This document shows, piece after piece, positions 48,302 through 57,057 of a stretch of 64,000 nt of DNA. Position 1 is the stretch's first letter. Each line of letters starts with the position of its first letter. The position numbers were made by a program, and so were the translations under genes. The DNA comes from Candidatus Zhuqueibacterota bacterium (GTDB lineage: Bacteria > BS750m-G25), in contig JADHWK010000003.1 in assembly GCA_016783505.1 (NCBI GenBank), positions 1 through 64,000 of the forward strand, given 5' to 3'. The notes under the pieces were generated by a model that did not search any database, was not told the origin of the DNA, and saw only the letters and a list, made by a program, of their open reading frames with translations.

Positions 48302-48425
48302 GCTCCAGAGGAGGGATCCTTCAAAAGCCGGACTTCCACATCGTTCTAGCTCGAACCCCCATCCCGAACCTTCGGGATAACCCGTCTGCCACTCATAAAG
48401 TGAGGCGGGCAGGCAGCCACCCGCT
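48302..48425 (-). repeat. Degenerate tRNA-Asn copy 1 (3' two-thirds) with two inserts and one replacement
   Basis: GCTCCAGAGGAGGGA..CTCGAACCCCC..AAC..AGCCACCCGCT matches 50843-50894. Confidence 0.85.
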
Positions 48426-48523
48426 AAATTAAACTACGCAGGAAGTCTCGTCCCCCATGAGATTTAAGTTCCCTCTCACGCCGCAATGCTGCGCATGGGG
48501 ATTTACCTTCTTTTTTGTAAAAT

Positions 48524-50278
48524 TTATCTATTCTTCCAATATCCCGCATTTACTTCTTCATAAGCTATTCTCTTTTTGTTAATCCAACCTATAAATATTG
48601 AACGATTGCCTTCAAATCTACCTGCAAATCTGGTAGTTGAAATTAAATAACATTTTTTAATAGTACGAGCAAGTGCAACAATCAATTGACATATCTCGAT
48701 ATCAGAAGGATTTTTATTACTTCTAGGTAAATTCCCTTCATTTAAACCAACTATAAATACATAACCTGCAGAAAGTCCTTTACAACCCACATATGTAGTT
48801 AAAGCTACTGATATATAATCGAGAGAAAAACTTTCCCCCCCATCTCTCTTTTCACCATCTTCATCTTTACTAAATTCTGCCTTTAAATCCTCAAGTTTAA
48901 CTCTAAAAAAATCCTCTAATATCTCTCTTTCCTCTCGATTAAGTTCCATATCATTTTTCAATTTTTCAAAAATCCCCAGATTGACTTCGTGTTTCTTAAT
49001 ATAACTTTTTGGTAAATAATCGTATAATCGTTTCTCACCATCTTTGAGTGTCTTCTTCAACAAGTTTCCAATATTTTTAATGGGATCGTGTTCTAATAAT
49101 ATCCTCCAACCTAGATTTGAAAATTTGTCTTCATCTAACAATATCTTATAGCCATCATTAATTGAAATCTTTTTTTGTTCTATCTCTATCTTTCTAAAAT
49201 GTAGAATGTATTTTTCATCTCGTTTCAAATAAGAATTTATCTGTTTCAGATATTGCTTAGGACCGGTTATCAAAACCGTATAATCGCCTTTACTATTTGA
49301 TTCTTTAATTTCATCTAAAGTTAGCTTATCAATTTCCTGCTCGATAAATTTGGCTACATAAGGAGCATTTTTTTGTTGAACACTACAGTAAGCGTGAATA
49401 ATTTTAGGATATTTTTTACTATCCTGTAATTTCTCTGGTAAATAGCAGATATACTCTTTATTAACTCGGTTCATAAGTTTTCCTATTTGTTTGGCTTTAT
49501 TAATAACATCATCTATAGCTTTAATCATCACATAAGGACATCTACTACAAAAGGGTAACATAAATCTTTTGTATTTAGGGTCTTTGAATTTTTCTCTTAT
49601 ATATTGGGGTGAAGCATATTTCAATCGAGTATAAAGTGCTTGGTCATCGTCTCCAACAATTAAAATAGGACTTTTTGTTTCTAAAATATTTATAAACTCA
49701 ACTTCCAATTTGTTAAAATCCTGATACTCATCAACTACAATCTGGTCGTATTTTGGAACTTCATCTGGTTTTTCTCTAAAATACTCAAGTACTCTAAAAA
49801 CGGAATCGTCAAAAGATACAGCATTATAGTAGTTAGAACGTCTCAAAAAGAAAGAAATATTTTTGCTTTCATAATCAAGCTGTTTAAAACTACGACTAAA
49901 ATTTGGGTCTTTATTATAACTTATTCGAGCATCTGATTTTATAATTAACTCTAATTTGGGAAAGAGAATGAAATCATCATCGATACCTTCATGATTAATC
50001 TTATGCAATAATTCTTTACAAAAGCTATGAAATGTACGTGACTTTGCTATATCTTTTAAATCTTTTTTTAATTTTTCTGCTAAATTATTAATAAAAGTCA
50101 AGGCGAGATAATTCCCTTGTTTTCTCTTCAATAATTCATAAAAGGTATATGTTTTCCCTGTACCAGGACCAGAAACGATAACTTTCTTGGGACACGTAGA
50201 CTCAAGTATTCTTCTAGTAAATTTATTTCTTTCTTCCTCTTGTTTTTTGAGATATGACCTTAATTCTTCTTCATTCAT
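48524..50278 (-). CDS. UvrD/SF1-like helicase/ATPase, AT-rich
   Basis: GPGTGKT, TFHSF, VVDEYQD, VGDDDQALY, KGL, VALAR. Confidence 0.85.
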   Translation of the reverse strand: MNEEELRSYLKKQEEERNKFTRRILESTCPKKVIVSGPGTGKTYTFYELLKRKQGNYLALTFINNLAEKLKKDLKDIAKSRTFHSFCKELLHKINHEGIDDDFILFPKLELIIKSDARISYNKDPNFSRSFKQLDYESKNISFFLRRSNYYNAVSFDDSVFRVLEYFREKPDEVPKYDQIVVDEYQDFNKLEVEFINILETKSPILIVGDDDQALYTRLKYASPQYIREKFKDPKYKRFMLPFCSRCPYVMIKAIDDVINKAKQIGKLMNRVNKEYICYLPEKLQDSKKYPKIIHAYCSVQQKNAPYVAKFIEQEIDKLTLDEIKESNSKGDYTVLITGPKQYLKQINSYLKRDEKYILHFRKIEIEQKKISINDGYKILLDEDKFSNLGWRILLEHDPIKNIGNLLKKTLKDGEKRLYDYLPKSYIKKHEVNLGIFEKLKNDMELNREEREILEDFFRVKLEDLKAEFSKDEDGEKRDGGESFSLDYISVALTTYVGCKGLSAGYVFIVGLNEGNLPRSNKNPSDIEICQLIVALARTIKKCYLISTTRFAGRFEGNRSIFIGWINKKRIAYEEVNAGYWKNR

Positions 50279-50282
50279 CTCT

Positions 50283-50455
50283 CTAATCTTCTATTACAGG
50301 GTCATCAATTGAAATTCCTAAAGCCTTAGCTGCTTTAATCAAAGTAGAAACTCTCGGGTCTTTTATGCCGCCTGTTGCTAGTTTAATGATGGTATTGTAT
50401 GAGATATCCGCCTTTCAAGCCAAAGCTTCTTGAGTCAATCCAATTTTTTTGCTTT
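50283..50455 (-). pseudogene. XRE-family HTH regulator remnant
   Basis: KKIGLTQEALA*KADISYNTIIKLATGGIKDPRVSTLIKAAKALGISIDD; no start codon found. Confidence 0.75.
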
Positions 50456-50494
50456 TTGCTATAAAAAAAGGGGCTTAAATCCCTTTTCTATTAA

Positions 50495-50552
50495 GCTCCG
50501 GAGGAGGGACTCGAACCCCCATCCCGAACCTTCGGGATAACAGCCACCCGCT
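50495..50552 (-). repeat. Degenerate tRNA-Asn copy 2
   Basis: GCTCCGGAGGAGGGACTCGAACCCCC[palindrome]AACAGCCACCCGCT. Confidence 0.9.
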
Positions 50553-50833
50553 TAAGTCTGAATATGATACTCTCCGGAAATCAACTTCTTAATGAACCCC
50601 TTACTCTTCTGGAATTTTACAAACCGTTCCGCCCTTTGAGCAGAAATACGATCAGAAAATTCCAAAGTGAAAATCAGTTTCCAAGGGCGTCCTCGCTTAG
50701 TCCATCCCTTTTGACTGGTATTATGATATAAAAGTCTCTCTTCCGGGTCACGAGATATACCAGTGTAGTATTTTTCCAGTTTATCAGAATAAAGAATGTA
50801 TAAATAACAGGGATCTCGATTAGAGTATTGCAT
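50552..50833 (-). CDS. Small GIY-YIG endonuclease
   Basis: YLYILYS...YYTGIS.DPEERL..HN, TKRGRPWKL, AQRAERFVK. Confidence 0.9.
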   Translation of the reverse strand: MQYSNRDPCYLYILYSDKLEKYYTGISRDPEERLLYHNTSQKGWTKRGRPWKLIFTLEFSDRISAQRAERFVKFQKSKGFIKKLISGEYHIQT

Positions 50834-50843
50834 AAATTAAAAG

Positions 50844-50915
50844 CTCCGGAGGAGGGACTTGAACCCCCAACCTAGTGGTTAACAGCCACCCGCTCTCCCA
50901 TTGAGCTACTCCGGA
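50844..50915 (-). tRNA. tRNA-Asn (GTT), CCA not encoded
   Basis: TCCGGAG TAGCTCAATGGGAGAGC G GGTGG CTGTTAA CCACT AGGTT GGGGG TTCAAGT CCCTC CTCCGGA G folds as a cloverleaf. Confidence 0.95.
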
Positions 50916-50985
50916 ACAGAACATCAAAAATCACTTGAACATAAAATCCAAAATTCTATCCTAAAATCCGTAGTAACAAAAAAAT

Positions 50986-51055
50986 GGACTCGAACCCCCA
51001 TCCCGAATCTTCGGGATAACAGCCACCCGTCCCGATCCTTCGGGACTACTCCGGA
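50986..51055 (-). repeat. Degenerate tRNA-Asn copy 3 (two hairpins replaced)
   Basis: GGACTCGAACCCCC[pal]AACAGCCACCCG[pal]CTACTCCGGA. Confidence 0.9.
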
Positions 51056-51180
51056 TTTTTTACAACAAACTATTATTTCTACCCCCATCCCGAAACTTCA
51101 GAATCAGGTACAGATGGGTCTTAGGTTTTCTATTATACTGTTATTGCCAGTTTTAGTTAGTTCATTTAAAATTTACCGAC

Positions 51181-51381
51181 TTATCCTGCTGCAACTTGTT
51201 GGTATGAGAAATTAAGAATATTGGCGCGTTGCTTGGCGTGTTCGATTGTCATACTAACCAAGTTTCCATCTTTATCAAGTTCGACTAGAATATTTTCGTT
51301 TAGATCTCGAGTGTCGACAATTTCCTTATCAGTAAAATTGACAAGAACAGTGTCCGTATCCTGAAAATATTTGATTTCCAT
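51181..51381 (-). CDS. DUF2283-like small protein (putative antitoxin)
   Basis: MEIKYFQDTDTVLV, ILVELDKDGNLVSMTIEHA. Confidence 0.75.
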   Translation of the reverse strand: MEIKYFQDTDTVLVNFTDKEIVDTRDLNENILVELDKDGNLVSMTIEHAKQRANILNFSYQQVAAG

Positions 51382-51623
51382 TAGATGTCCTCCTTAAAAG
51401 AACTGTCAAAGAAAGCATTGTGAATAGTTTCCCCATCTTCCAACAGAATAATACGAAGATATTTGTCATTAGCTTCTGAAATTTTTGCCCATCTTTTGAT
51501 CCGACCATCAGATTGAATCTCTTCTTTAACAGGATTGTTATAGATATACTCAATCCATTCCATTTTTATATCTCTCCTATCGTTACGTTGTAGAGTGTAA
51601 AGAAAGTATTGAGTAAATTTCAT
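51381..51623 (-). CDS. Putative RelE-like/DUF4258-type toxin
   Basis: 80 aa, QSDGRIKRW...YLRIILLEDGETIHNAFFD; overlaps the DUF2283 start. Confidence 0.6.
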   Translation of the reverse strand: MKFTQYFLYTLQRNDRRDIKMEWIEYIYNNPVKEEIQSDGRIKRWAKISEANDKYLRIILLEDGETIHNAFFDSSFKEDI

Positions 51624-51649
51624 TTTCAGTAAACCTATAACATTTCTGT

Positions 51650-51762
51650 TTCGGGGAGGAATCCGTCAAGAGCCGGACTCACACTTCGTTCTAGCTCGAA
51701 CCCCCATCCCGAACCTTCGGGATAACAGTCACCCGTCCCGATCCTTCGGGACTACTCCGGAA
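51650..51762 (-). repeat. Degenerate tRNA-Asn copy 4 (near full length; two hairpins replaced, one insert)
   Basis: Same 33-nt insert as copy 1 and the same palindromes as copy 3. Confidence 0.88.
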
Positions 51763-51770
51763 TATATTAT

Positions 51771-52610
51771 TCAAAGAACCACACTTTTATGCCTGGCGGC
51801 GTGGCATTGGATGTTCACCGCCGCCGGCAGGCTGGCGATATGGCAGGGATAGACCTCGATGAAGACGGCCAGGGCGGTGGTTCTACCACCCAAGCCCTGG
51901 GGGCCGATGCCCAGTTTGTTTACATCCTCCAGCCATTCCTTTTCCAGCTTTTCGTAATAAGGATCGGGATGAACGGATCCGATCTCCCTTAAAAGGGCCT
52001 TCTTGGCGATCTGTGTGCATTTGTCGAACGTCCCCCCGATGCCCACCCCCACCACGATGGGGGGACAGGGGTTGGCCCCCGACCGACTGACCCGGTCGAG
52101 CACAAACTGCCGGACGCCCTCAACCCCGTCGGCGGGCTTCAGCATCCACACTTCACTCATGTTTTCGCTGCCACCGCCCTTGGGGGCCATGACAATTCTG
52201 AGCTTATCCCCGGGAACCATTTCTGTCCAGATAACCGCCGGCGTGTTATCGTCGGTGTTCTTTCTCTCCAGAGGATCAGAAAGAATGGATTTCCGCAGAT
52301 ATCCCTCGGTATATCCCTGCCGTACCCCTTCGTTGATAGCTTCTTTCAAGTCCCCGTTCAAGTGGACATCCTGACCTAGCTCCACAAAAAAGACGGCAAA
52401 GCCGGTGTCCTGACAAATGGGCACCCTCTCTTCAGAGGCAATCTTAGCATTTTCCAGAAGCTGGTCCAGAATATTCCTACCGGTAAGGGATTCCTCCCGG
52501 GCCTTGAATGTCTTAAAAGCCTCCACCACATCCTGACCCAGATAGTAATTCGACTCCATACACAGGTTTTTCACCGCTTCGGTAACGGTCTTAACGTCCA
52601 ATTCTCGCAT
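51771..52610 (-). CDS. Fe-S fumarate hydratase/tartrate dehydratase alpha subunit
   Basis: PICQDTG, GYLRKS, KGGGSEN, NPCPP, GPQGLGG, CHAARH. Confidence 0.92.
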   Translation of the reverse strand: MRELDVKTVTEAVKNLCMESNYYLGQDVVEAFKTFKAREESLTGRNILDQLLENAKIASEERVPICQDTGFAVFFVELGQDVHLNGDLKEAINEGVRQGYTEGYLRKSILSDPLERKNTDDNTPAVIWTEMVPGDKLRIVMAPKGGGSENMSEVWMLKPADGVEGVRQFVLDRVSRSGANPCPPIVVGVGIGGTFDKCTQIAKKALLREIGSVHPDPYYEKLEKEWLEDVNKLGIGPQGLGGRTTALAVFIEVYPCHIASLPAAVNIQCHAARHKSVVL

Positions 52611-52659
52611 TTTGTCCCCGTCAAAATTACCCTGTCAATCGTCTTCAGCAGTTGACCTT

Positions 52660-53316
52660 TTACAACTTATGCTCCAGAACAACAATCTTTCTTTCACCAG
52701 GCAAGGTCTCCTTGGTGATCGAAAATTCTGATGTCCCCGGACGTTCCACATCCTTCTGCCCTTTCAAAAATGGATCGACGGGGGCGATAGGAAATCCCAA
52801 TACCTCGGTCTTGAAGTGCATGGGGATCACCACCCTGGGATTAAGCTGATCCACTACCCGTTTGGCCTCGTCAGCGTTAATGGTGTAAAAGCCCCCCACC
52901 GGGATGAATAGCACATCTACCGTACCGATGGAGGCCACCTCATTTGCGCTGAGAACATGCCCGAGATCACCTAAGTGACACACCCGGAAGCCGTCTACAT
53001 CAAAGCTGAAGATGGTGTTTCCTCCCCGCTCCCTTCCTCTGCTTTGATCGTGATAAGTGGCCACCCCATTGAACACAAATCCCCCAACTTTATAGGTCCC
53101 CACCCCCTTAACCACAGTGGGGCTCCCCTTGAGGCTTTTAACATCGAAGTGGTCGGGGTGCTCGTGGCTCACGATCACCACATCCACCACATCCTCGATC
53201 TTTCCATACCCAACGGCTCCGTCATAGCTTCCTGCTTCATAAGGATCGGTGAGAACCTTGCGACCGTCTTCCGCTTTAATCAAAAAGGCAGAATGGCCCA
53301 ACCAAGTAATTATCAT
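52660..53316 (-). CDS. MBL-fold metallohydrolase
   Basis: WLGHSAF, SHEHPDH, HLGDLGH, IPMHF. Confidence 0.88.
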   Translation of the reverse strand: MIITWLGHSAFLIKAEDGRKVLTDPYEAGSYDGAVGYGKIEDVVDVVIVSHEHPDHFDVKSLKGSPTVVKGVGTYKVGGFVFNGVATYHDQSRGRERGGNTIFSFDVDGFRVCHLGDLGHVLSANEVASIGTVDVLFIPVGGFYTINADEAKRVVDQLNPRVVIPMHFKTEVLGFPIAPVDPFLKGQKDVERPGTSEFSITKETLPGERKIVVLEHKL

Positions 53317-56765: not shown

Positions 56766-57057
56766 GATGTAGCCGTACCCTTTATGGGTGCGAAGTTACA
56801 AATTCACTCAGGCGCCTGGGCCTGTGGCAGAACTATCGCGATTGATAATTTAGGGGTTATGTTTAGAACCGCTCTAAAGAGCGGTTCTGGTTAAATACTT
56901 GTTAAAGAAAGCCTTAACCAGAACTTTATCCCGATGCTTCGGGATAGGTTTTGGCCCTTGCCGAGCAGGCAAGATCTTCAGACGGAAAATCAATGATCTC
57001 TAAGTTGTGCCACAGATCCGCCTGACTGACCGCAGGTATAAAGCCTGCGACTACATC
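56766..57057. repeat. Inverted pair of GTAG-type REP-like palindromes (REPIN-like)
   Basis: GATGTAGCCGTACCCTTTATGGGTGCG and CGCAGGTATAAAGCCTGCGACTACATC; related CGCAGGCTCAAAGCCTGCG at about 34537. Confidence 0.65.

Follow-up and report, generated by a model that had tools for sequence, protein, structure and literature searches.

A tRNA-Asn gene flanked by overwritten copies

The 64,000-nucleotide stretch of Candidatus Zhuqueibacterota DNA analysed here (contig JADHWK010000003.1, positions 1 to 64,000; hereafter the window) carries an intact tRNA-Asn(GTT) gene that lies among partial copies of itself, and in these copies short segments have been replaced by a palindrome of 16-18 bases with CCCGA and TCGGG arms. 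The window is contig C85 of a 2.51-Mb, 89-contig, 60%-complete metagenome-assembled genome of 46% GC, and the intact gene is the sole tRNA gene that ARAGORN finds in it. The locus comprises this gene, a small GIY-YIG open reading frame (ORF), four tRNA-Asn copies numbered 0, 1, 3 and 4, and a decayed fragment (Table 1).

Two segments of copy 3 are overwritten. Read in the RNA sense, the first swap turns AACCACTAGGTT, which spans the end of the anticodon loop, the 3' anticodon-stem strand and the variable loop, into ATCCCGAAG(G/A)TTCGGGAT, and the second turns the D arm minus its closing pair, CTCAATGGGAGAG, into TCCCGAAGGATCGGGA. In an alignment to the intact gene, the flanks of both swaps and the 12 bases that separate them match base for base, and there is no target duplication at either swap. 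The sole flank mismatch lies in the T loop, which reads TTCGAG in every copy and TTCAAG in the intact gene.

The first swap is common to all four copies and recurs in decayed form in the fragment, and the D-arm swap is limited to copies 3 and 4. Since TTCGAG is shared by all copies, the sequence suggests that the first swap arose in what was perhaps a single event and was subsequently copied. Copy 4 has about 30 bases of non-tRNA flank in common with copy 0, and it is retained in public-run contigs of two strains that are roughly 1% divergent. In copy 1, the last codons of the GIY-YIG ORF take the place of the D-arm region. None of the swapped copies is called as a tRNA, either by ARAGORN in the window or by cmscan of positions 49000-53000 with E values up to 1, where the intact gene was the one match. 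A first-pass annotation made from the window's letters had described the two replaced segments of copy 3, the conserved flanks without duplication and the distribution of the swaps over the four copies, and had argued that such copies could not be functional tRNAs; the alignments and tRNA searches agree with it.

Table 1. The tRNA-Asn locus and further copies of the palindrome in the window.
Feature	Position	Strand	Evidence or content
tRNA-Asn copy 0, at the far end of the low-GC island, with first swap	48349-48423	minus	palindrome 48361-48378
tRNA-Asn copy 1, 3' two thirds intact except for first swap	50495-50578	minus	palindrome 50521-50538
GIY-YIG ORF of 93 residues, between intact tRNA-Asn and copy 1	50552-50833	minus	Pfam PF01541, E 5.7e-14
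Intact tRNA-Asn(GTT), unswapped reference	50843-50915	minus	ARAGORN; Rfam RF00005 (tRNA), 69 bits
tRNA-Asn copy 3, from 5' acceptor strand to T loop, two segments overwritten, 3' part absent	50986-51055	minus	sequence, alignment
First palindrome of copy 3, ATCCCGAATCTTCGGGAT for AACCTAGTGGTT (3' anticodon-stem strand and variable loop)	51000-51017		12 bases lost, 18 gained
Second palindrome of copy 3, TCCCGATCCTTCGGGA for CTCTCCCATTGAG (D arm without closing G-C pair)	51030-51045		13 bases lost, 16 gained
Decayed fragment: T-stem C-run, then palindrome with two G-to-A changes in one arm	51081-51104	minus	
tRNA-Asn copy 4, both swaps, cut in T loop	51694-51761	minus	palindromes 51706-51723 and 51736-51751
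Palindrome at the long-hairpin tip of a ~227-base repeat (56804-57030)	56929-56944		TCTTTAGA in two paralogues elsewhere
Twelve further core copies, spanning 8051-60523	starts 8051, 15013, 17206, 18629, 22062 (N5), 27450, 27626, 42571, 46606, 57212, 57274, 60510		

The palindrome belongs to a genome-wide family

In the window, 19 matches to the core motif CCCGA-N3-8-TCGGG contrast with a mean of 0.57 and a maximum of 3 in 100 shuffles. Collected genome-wide, CCCGA-N4-TCGGG has 293 copies, and the remaining spacings from N2 to N9 give 4-19. The consensus is R-TCCCGA-(A)NN(T)-TCGGGA-Y, 16-18 bases long, with T at position -1 in 238/293 copies and A at +14 in 227/293; in a sequence logo of the 293 copies, no base is conserved past two positions on either side of the palindrome. 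Among all hairpins of the genome with six-base arms and a four-base loop, the TCCCGA type is the commonest (226 copies), followed by CCCCGA (52) and a next type with 23.

Copies are sparse in long reading frames: 9.2% of them lie in stop-to-stop ORFs of at least 600 bases, which take up 77% of genome positions. They are often close together, with 29 of 254 neighbour distances at or below 100 bases, and the two palindromes of copy 3, like those of copy 4, sit 12 bases apart. The stems do not generally extend into the flanks (over 226 copies, the first flanking pair is complementary in 44% versus 41.5%), so most present copies are not the tips of longer hairpins.

Four contigs of 34-61 kb (C42, C49, C89 and C10) are free of the palindrome, and the others carry 1-2.4 copies per 10 kb; the four may be islands or mis-binned DNA. 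Logan contigs of public runs terminate at palindromes. An assembly artefact was considered and rejected, as the same pattern is found on six contigs and in other assemblies.

Hairpin arms of other tRNA copies are replaced in the same way

We searched the genome for partial copies of all 35 tRNAs predicted by ARAGORN and read the matches individually. Three variants of tRNA-Asp(GTC) on contig C5 have TCCCGATGGTTCGGGA in place of CGCCGGAGGTCG, affecting the same anticodon-3'/variable stretch as in tRNA-Asn. In two copies of tRNA-Glu(CTC) on C35 the entire anticodon arm, GCCGGCCTCTCACGCCGGT, has become ATCCCGATACTTCGGGAT, and in two 3'-half copies of tRNA-Pro(GGG) on C81 the T arm, GCTGGTTCGAATCCAGT, has become GTCCCGA-AGCT/AAGT-TCGGGAT. 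One copy of tRNA-Val(GAC) on C63 bears TCCCGA-TTGCCA-TCGGGA as its anticodon arm, and a copy of tRNA-Ala(GGC) (C81:27028-27048) has there a perfect hairpin of seven base pairs of which the genome holds no second copy. Partial copies of tRNA-Phe, -Arg and -Ser (three) show no swap. Two swapped copies are still picked up in altered form: a Glu copy as 'tRNA-???', its anticodon being two bases long, and an Asp copy as a tRNA whose anticodon stem has three pairs.

The borders of these replacements coincide with tRNA arms. In five of seven tRNA events, or in four of six when this palindrome alone is counted, the two borders each lie no more than one base from those of a canonical arm; with a null expectation of 0.044 per event, this gives P = 3.2e-6 and P = 5.2e-5, respectively. 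Thirteen palindromes fall within the 1,075 bases of the 17 tRNA pseudo-copies, a density some 90 times that of the whole genome (0.13 per kb), and no tRNA event leaves the palindrome merely added beside the old hairpin. Gradual convergence was rejected because the flanks are identical to those of the parent genes.

Paralogous repeats and coding copies reveal the replaced segments

We next compared palindrome-bearing sites with their paralogues by blasting the flanks of 292 copies (one mismatch allowed) against the genome, accepting places where both flanks aligned to within 6-7 bases of the junction and lay -5 to 80 bases apart. This yielded 31 repeat families, 18 of which include members without the palindrome. 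A different segment occupies the site in 14 of these 18 mixed families, measuring 4-14 bases in 11 and 36-51 bases in three. Two are compatible with plain insertion, both belonging to one (CAATCAG)n family; one further family has both states, and one is ambiguous. In the nested cases, the loop of a resident copy is replaced.

We scored 14 alternative segments, one per distinct type, for end-to-end complementarity, leaving aside zero-length and heptamer-unit cases, one mis-registered partial palindrome, duplicate variants and one 51-base segment that itself contains a palindrome. In eight of the 14, two or more complementary pairs nest inwards from the ends, against null means of 0.92 for random genome segments and 2.03 for shuffles, and none of 5,000 simulations reached eight. 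Examples of such inverted repeats are TCTTTAGA, TCCATTTTAATGGA, CCAAGTCTTGG and the 36-base loop of a long stem. The ancestral state is clear for the tRNAs, for the two proteins described below and for families with an unfilled majority; it is not clear for every family.

The ~227-base repeat at 56804-57030 of the window has at least nine further copies in the genome at 85-93% identity, with the palindrome at the tip of its long hairpin in most. The tandem CAATCAG heptamer repeat, at about 37677 in the window and at about ten further loci, is the sole family in which the palindrome looks simply inserted.

Full-consensus copies truly within genes number only two, and both are translated as I-P-K-[LF]-R-D. 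In a PpiD-like protein, IPKLRD stands at the position of [IF][KR]P[LF][DE][DE] in 14 homologues, a net gain of one residue, and in an NTP_transf_5 protein, IPKFRD stands for QSY of an orthologue with 77% identity and lengthens the protein by two. These in-frame copies replace 12-15 bases.

The first-pass annotation had proposed that the palindrome takes the place of existing hairpins in a structure-directed manner, and had suggested assembling its sites genome-wide and asking both whether the lost segments are inverted repeats more often than chance and whether the sites look like simple insertions. The proposal gains support at the tRNA-Asn locus and at independent loci (tRNA-Glu, -Val, -Pro and -Asp), and also from the excess of inverted repeats and the confinement of insertion-like sites to a single family.

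The palindrome occupies helix tips of functional RNAs and occurs in a second genome

The RNase P RNA gene (C71:14152-14398, 121 bits, cut by the contig end) contains two copies: TCCCGATTATTCGGGA tips a P12-like helix, and TCCCGAGATTAATCGGGA lies in a 30-base expansion of the next helix. A looser relative, CCCCGAC-N6-GTCGGGG, lies in an 18-base expansion of an earlier helix. The variable arm of tRNA-Sec (C37:24662-24759) is TCCCGA-TGTGAAG-TCGGGA, and that of tRNA-Ser(CGA) (C35:18344-18433) is the palindrome with two mismatches; the tmRNA holds no copy. These arms of functional tRNAs may have been overwritten where the change could be tolerated, or an arm of this type may have been the origin of the family.

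Among 400 other genomes, the strict 18-mer occurs ten times in one (G374), once in another (G311) and in none of the remaining 398. The 16-mer has 77 copies in G374; most of these have GTAC at the centre and form part of a longer repeat. The variable arm of its tRNA-Leu(CAG) (L121 1457-1543) is exactly TCCCGATTACTCGGGA, and this gene is followed by a GIY-YIG ORF (L121 ~1587-1830) and then by a partial tRNA-Leu with the same arm.

The occupied helix tips bear on a conventional explanation, in which ordinary insertion is followed by independent deletion, or any stable hairpin is selected for, and only the hairpin-substituting copies are kept. Selection would be expected to preserve shape or frame in RNase P RNA, in tRNA variable arms and in the two proteins, and by itself could be the reason that only helix tips of functional RNAs are occupied; the one repeat family with plain presence or absence also fits. 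The neutral tRNA copies are for this purpose the stronger evidence of targeting: they are truncated and spare, under no visible selection, yet their borders fall base-exactly at the feet of arms and their flanks equal the parent gene. Together with the lack of any tRNA event in which old hairpin and palindrome stand side by side, and with nested copies in which a loop is replaced, this makes insertion followed by loss or selection very improbable.

Transposase and GIY-YIG genes are candidate agents

The genome encodes three Y1 (IS200/IS605-type) transposases, on contigs C80, C89 (C89:1068-1875) and C32 (C32:19816-20389), that are about 30% identical to one another. A Y1_Tnp domain is recognised (Pfam PF01797, E 1.1e-20), and against the NCBIfam IS200 model NF033573, with a cut-off of 55 bits, the three score 71.5, 68.6 and 52.9 bits, the C32 protein falling just under. 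The HxH and GY motifs are invariant in their alignment, and they align to the ISDra2-type structures 2XM3 and 2FYX. Each gene has palindromes on both sides. For the C80 gene it is the palindrome described here that stands on both sides, within 44-base direct repeats, an arrangement with a chance of 0.0005 for random intervals. A metagenome scan with the C80 transposase returned the same locus alone (99.7% identical), and the C80 element shows neither the multiple copies nor the defined target/cleavage tetranucleotide expected of an IS200/IS605 element.

The C89 and C32 genes are flanked by palindromes of their own, of the CACCACGAT, CACCCGAAT, AACCGTT and CCCACGAAT types. A pair made of the CCCACGAAT hairpin and the AACCGTT hairpin recurs about 40 bases apart on C40, C51 and C71 and constitutes a second, low-copy hairpin family. 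C89 is one of the contigs free of the present palindrome.

The GIY-YIG ORF of the window is one of four small ORFs of this kind in the genome (the others at C5:38558-38770, C81:27079-27288 and C81:39314-39517), open frames of 93-131 residues with 30-52% identity, and in all four cases one neighbour is a tRNA gene and the other a partial copy of the same tRNA. Three of these partial copies have the palindrome in an arm, and the fourth has another new hairpin. The layout looks like a tRNA-targeting mobile cassette and probably explains why spare tRNA copies exist. Passages of PMC2330249 describe a precedent in SegB of phage T4, a GIY-YIG endonuclease in a tRNA gene cluster. Of the gene types that had been suggested as worth seeking, the palindrome-flanked IS200-type transposase and the GIY-YIG ORFs beside swapped tRNA copies are thus present, and no reverse transcriptase was found in the 60%-complete genome.

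These ORFs raise the question of whether a nuclease, followed by repair, could have placed the palindrome. GIY-YIG proteins beside tRNA genes would cut tRNA-like or hairpin DNA, and the commonest hairpin of the genome would patch the gap. The consistent association with partial tRNA copies, three bearing the palindrome and one another new hairpin, is in keeping with such break repair, as are the same layout at tRNA-Leu in G374 and the SegB precedent. Yet no GIY-YIG gene, nor any remnant of one, lies close to the swapped Glu and Val copies, and about 290 palindromes lie far from any such gene. Break repair of this kind accounts for the tRNA duplicates better than for a palindrome that fills hairpins, and we regard it as an improbable source of the swaps.

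The ORF and the tRNA-Asn copies of the window lie in a low-GC island (48349-51761, about 33% GC at 48-50 kb), each end of which is a tRNA-Asn copy. In addition to the ORF and the intact tRNA-Asn, the island encodes a 584-residue UvrD-like helicase (48524-50278) and a DUF2283 protein with an 80-residue partner (51181-51623); no integrase was seen in it. The anticodon loop of copy 0 carries a 32-base insertion of another hairpin (48382-48413), of the CCGTCTGCC...GGCGGGCAGG type, which is related to the stems of a different repeat family (CCTGCCCG...CAGGCGG). Contigs of two public runs (X2 and X5) diverge from the window at 50881, within the anticodon region, so other junctions exist in the population.

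A model for hairpin overwriting

The genome holds a dispersed, mostly extragenic palindrome family whose members stand in place of other segments, in a pattern that coincides with hairpins. The simplest explanation is that the process reads DNA structure, and we consider structure-directed replacement very likely. Which enzyme acts is a matter of conjecture, with a Y1/HUH enzyme as a possible agent that we put forward tentatively. Taken together, we lean towards the view that the palindrome is a selfish family of about 300 copies, resembling repetitive extragenic palindromic (REP) sequences, that spreads by overwriting hairpins, perhaps through HUH (Y1) strand cleavage and rejoining. The whole assessment rests on one incomplete genome and on hints from a second.

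In this model, a stem-loop would be excised between two points at its foot and the palindrome placed there, with 12-19 bases going out, 16-18 coming in, the flanks untouched and nothing duplicated. A hairpin-recognising HUH (Y1) enzyme of the IS200/IS605 kind could perform this by cleavage and rejoining on single-stranded DNA, cutting at both feet of the donor and target hairpins before exchanging them. We favour this type of enzyme because HUH enzymes of IS200/IS605 and RAYT elements recognise hairpins and cut and join DNA without cofactors, as described in passages of PMC3116915 and PMC3733652. If the exchange were reciprocal, it would also account for the non-palindrome hairpins found in minority members of repeat families. 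New copies would survive where the old hairpin is dispensable, as in spare tRNA copies, at the tips of other repeats and in intergenic DNA, or where shape alone matters, as in peripheral RNase P RNA helices, the variable arms of long-arm tRNAs and two tolerant protein loops.

Several observations weigh against this model or parts of it. The three Y1 proteins score 26.7, 24.4 and 22.6 bits against the RAYT model NF047646, whose cut-off is 80. At the C80 gene, the palindrome is enclosed by stems of the AACCGAT...ATCGGTT type, which look like the hairpins beside the other two Y1 genes; it may there have overwritten that element's own hairpins, making the link to the transposase secondary. The C80 element is present in a single copy in the genome. 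In G374 we found no homologue of the C80 protein, and of its seven Y1 matches none lies within ~1.5 kb of a TCCCGA-armed copy; for one of them, a CCCCGA-armed relative lies at a distance of 1.3 kb. The orientation of the loop is not associated with GC skew. The segment lost in the first tRNA-Asn swap is a fortuitous DNA hairpin and no tRNA arm, and the tRNA swaps represent about six independent events, not 13, because several copies are duplicates of one event. Two of the 18 mixed families, both of the (CAATCAG)n kind, look like plain insertion. No orthologous empty site was obtained: the 30 and then 400 genomes considered as relatives share only the domain, with no close relative among the genomes searched, so that all comparisons are to paralogues or to homologous proteins. 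The nearest fumarase neighbours, from FCB-type uncultured bacteria, are 70% identical at the protein level, and the 80 loci retrieved contain no tRNA-Asn and no palindrome.

Two tRNA copies complicate the exchange of whole hairpins in particular. The new loop of the Val copy, TTGCCA(T), equals the old anticodon loop TTGACAT at six of seven bases, and the Ala copy retains TGGCA of its former loop. Exchange of a whole cassette predicts neither, and apparent retention of the old loop favours the main rival, replication template switching or short-patch gene conversion in the absence of a transposase. Templated quasi-palindrome mutations are known to exist, and here a polymerase stalled at the foot of a hairpin would copy one of the ~300 palindromes and return, with quasi-palindrome correction perfecting the arms. 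Such a process would suit the borders at hairpin feet, the lack of duplication and the complex multi-base replacements; it would also suit the frequent proximity of palindromes, the arm pairs around N5-N7 loops and the unique perfect hairpin of the Ala copy. However, donor and target flanks share no homology, and a switching strand therefore has nothing to anneal to on its way out or back. Half-converted hairpins with one perfect arm are not in excess, and for the five N4 events taken together, the in-register match of the centres falls short of significance (Fisher P 0.09). We consider template switching unlikely as the source of the family.

A variant of hairpin overwriting goes further and would have the selfish hairpin use a reaction not yet described, in which a structure-reading enzyme, perhaps a Y1 HUH protein acting in trans, exchanges any stem-loop at the feet of its stem, nearly length-neutrally and without a footprint. 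Some events might then install only two arms around a resident loop, and even the helices of working RNAs (RNase P RNA, the variable arms of tRNAs) and protein loops could be rewritten. We hold this stronger version to be doubtful.

To our knowledge, it has never been settled how REP-type palindromes come to occupy hundreds of sites, and the models known to us, RAYT-mediated REPIN movement and IS200-type peel-and-paste, insert DNA. The present genome offers many internally controlled before-and-after pairs, with an intact tRNA beside an overwritten copy. These pairs display like-for-like hairpin replacement with base-exact borders and make a concrete reaction testable. If the process reads structure, it would account for repeats that settle in structured RNA genes and coding regions and leave them working, and it would let RNA helices change rapidly and in concert; it could also confound the annotation of tRNA and other RNA genes in uncultured lineages.

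Comparison with known systems

The IS200/IS605 elements ISDra2 and IS608 resemble the present system in their protein family, their HUH and Tyr motifs, the hairpins near both ends of the gene and the absence of target duplication. Canonical IS200/IS605 elements insert as a whole next to a target of 4-5 bases and are not known to cause a loss of target bases. Here, in contrast, target DNA gives way to a symmetric hairpin of 18 bases that has neither a conserved cleavage sequence nor a conserved guide, and the element that bears the gene is single-copy. The palindrome also differs from miniature inverted-repeat transposable elements, as the whole unit is one hairpin of 16-18 bases and target duplication is seen at no compared site.

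STRR repeats are present in helix P12 of cyanobacterial RNase P RNA. Rickettsia palindromic elements, which PMC3733652 mentions, are likewise palindromic repeats that proteins tolerate in frame and that RNA genes tolerate too. The insertions of both kinds add tens of residues or bases, whereas the present palindrome adds one or two residues or exchanges one helix tip for a like one. Cyanobacterial small dispersed repeats (SDRs; 21-27 bases) are alike in being very small dispersed modules with precise placement. SDR5 inserts precisely between bases 3 and 4 of the HIP1 octamer, as passages of Elhai 2015 (PMC4390886) describe; that is insertion into a sequence, unlike the replacement of a hairpin seen here.

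In distribution, the family resembles REPs and REPINs with their RAYT transposases. As described in passages of Bertels and Rainey 2011 (PMC3116915) and Di Nocera 2013 (PMC3733652), these are short palindromes in hundreds of copies, mostly extragenic and often in close pairs, in host genomes that encode Y1 HUH transposases with palindrome-flanked genes. The present palindrome is shorter (16-18 bases versus 20-40 for REPs) and has no GTAG or CGTC tag, its logo being symmetric (R...Y) with no tetranucleotide. The transposases fall below the threshold of the RAYT model, and the repeats flanking the C80 gene are direct. Replacement of a target hairpin is not described for REPs in the passages of PMC3116915 and PMC3733652 cited here, and we found no description of hairpin replacement by small repeats in the open-access literature, supplements excluded. 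The family works like REPs and IS200-derived hairpins, and on several of the features that define membership it stands apart from both.
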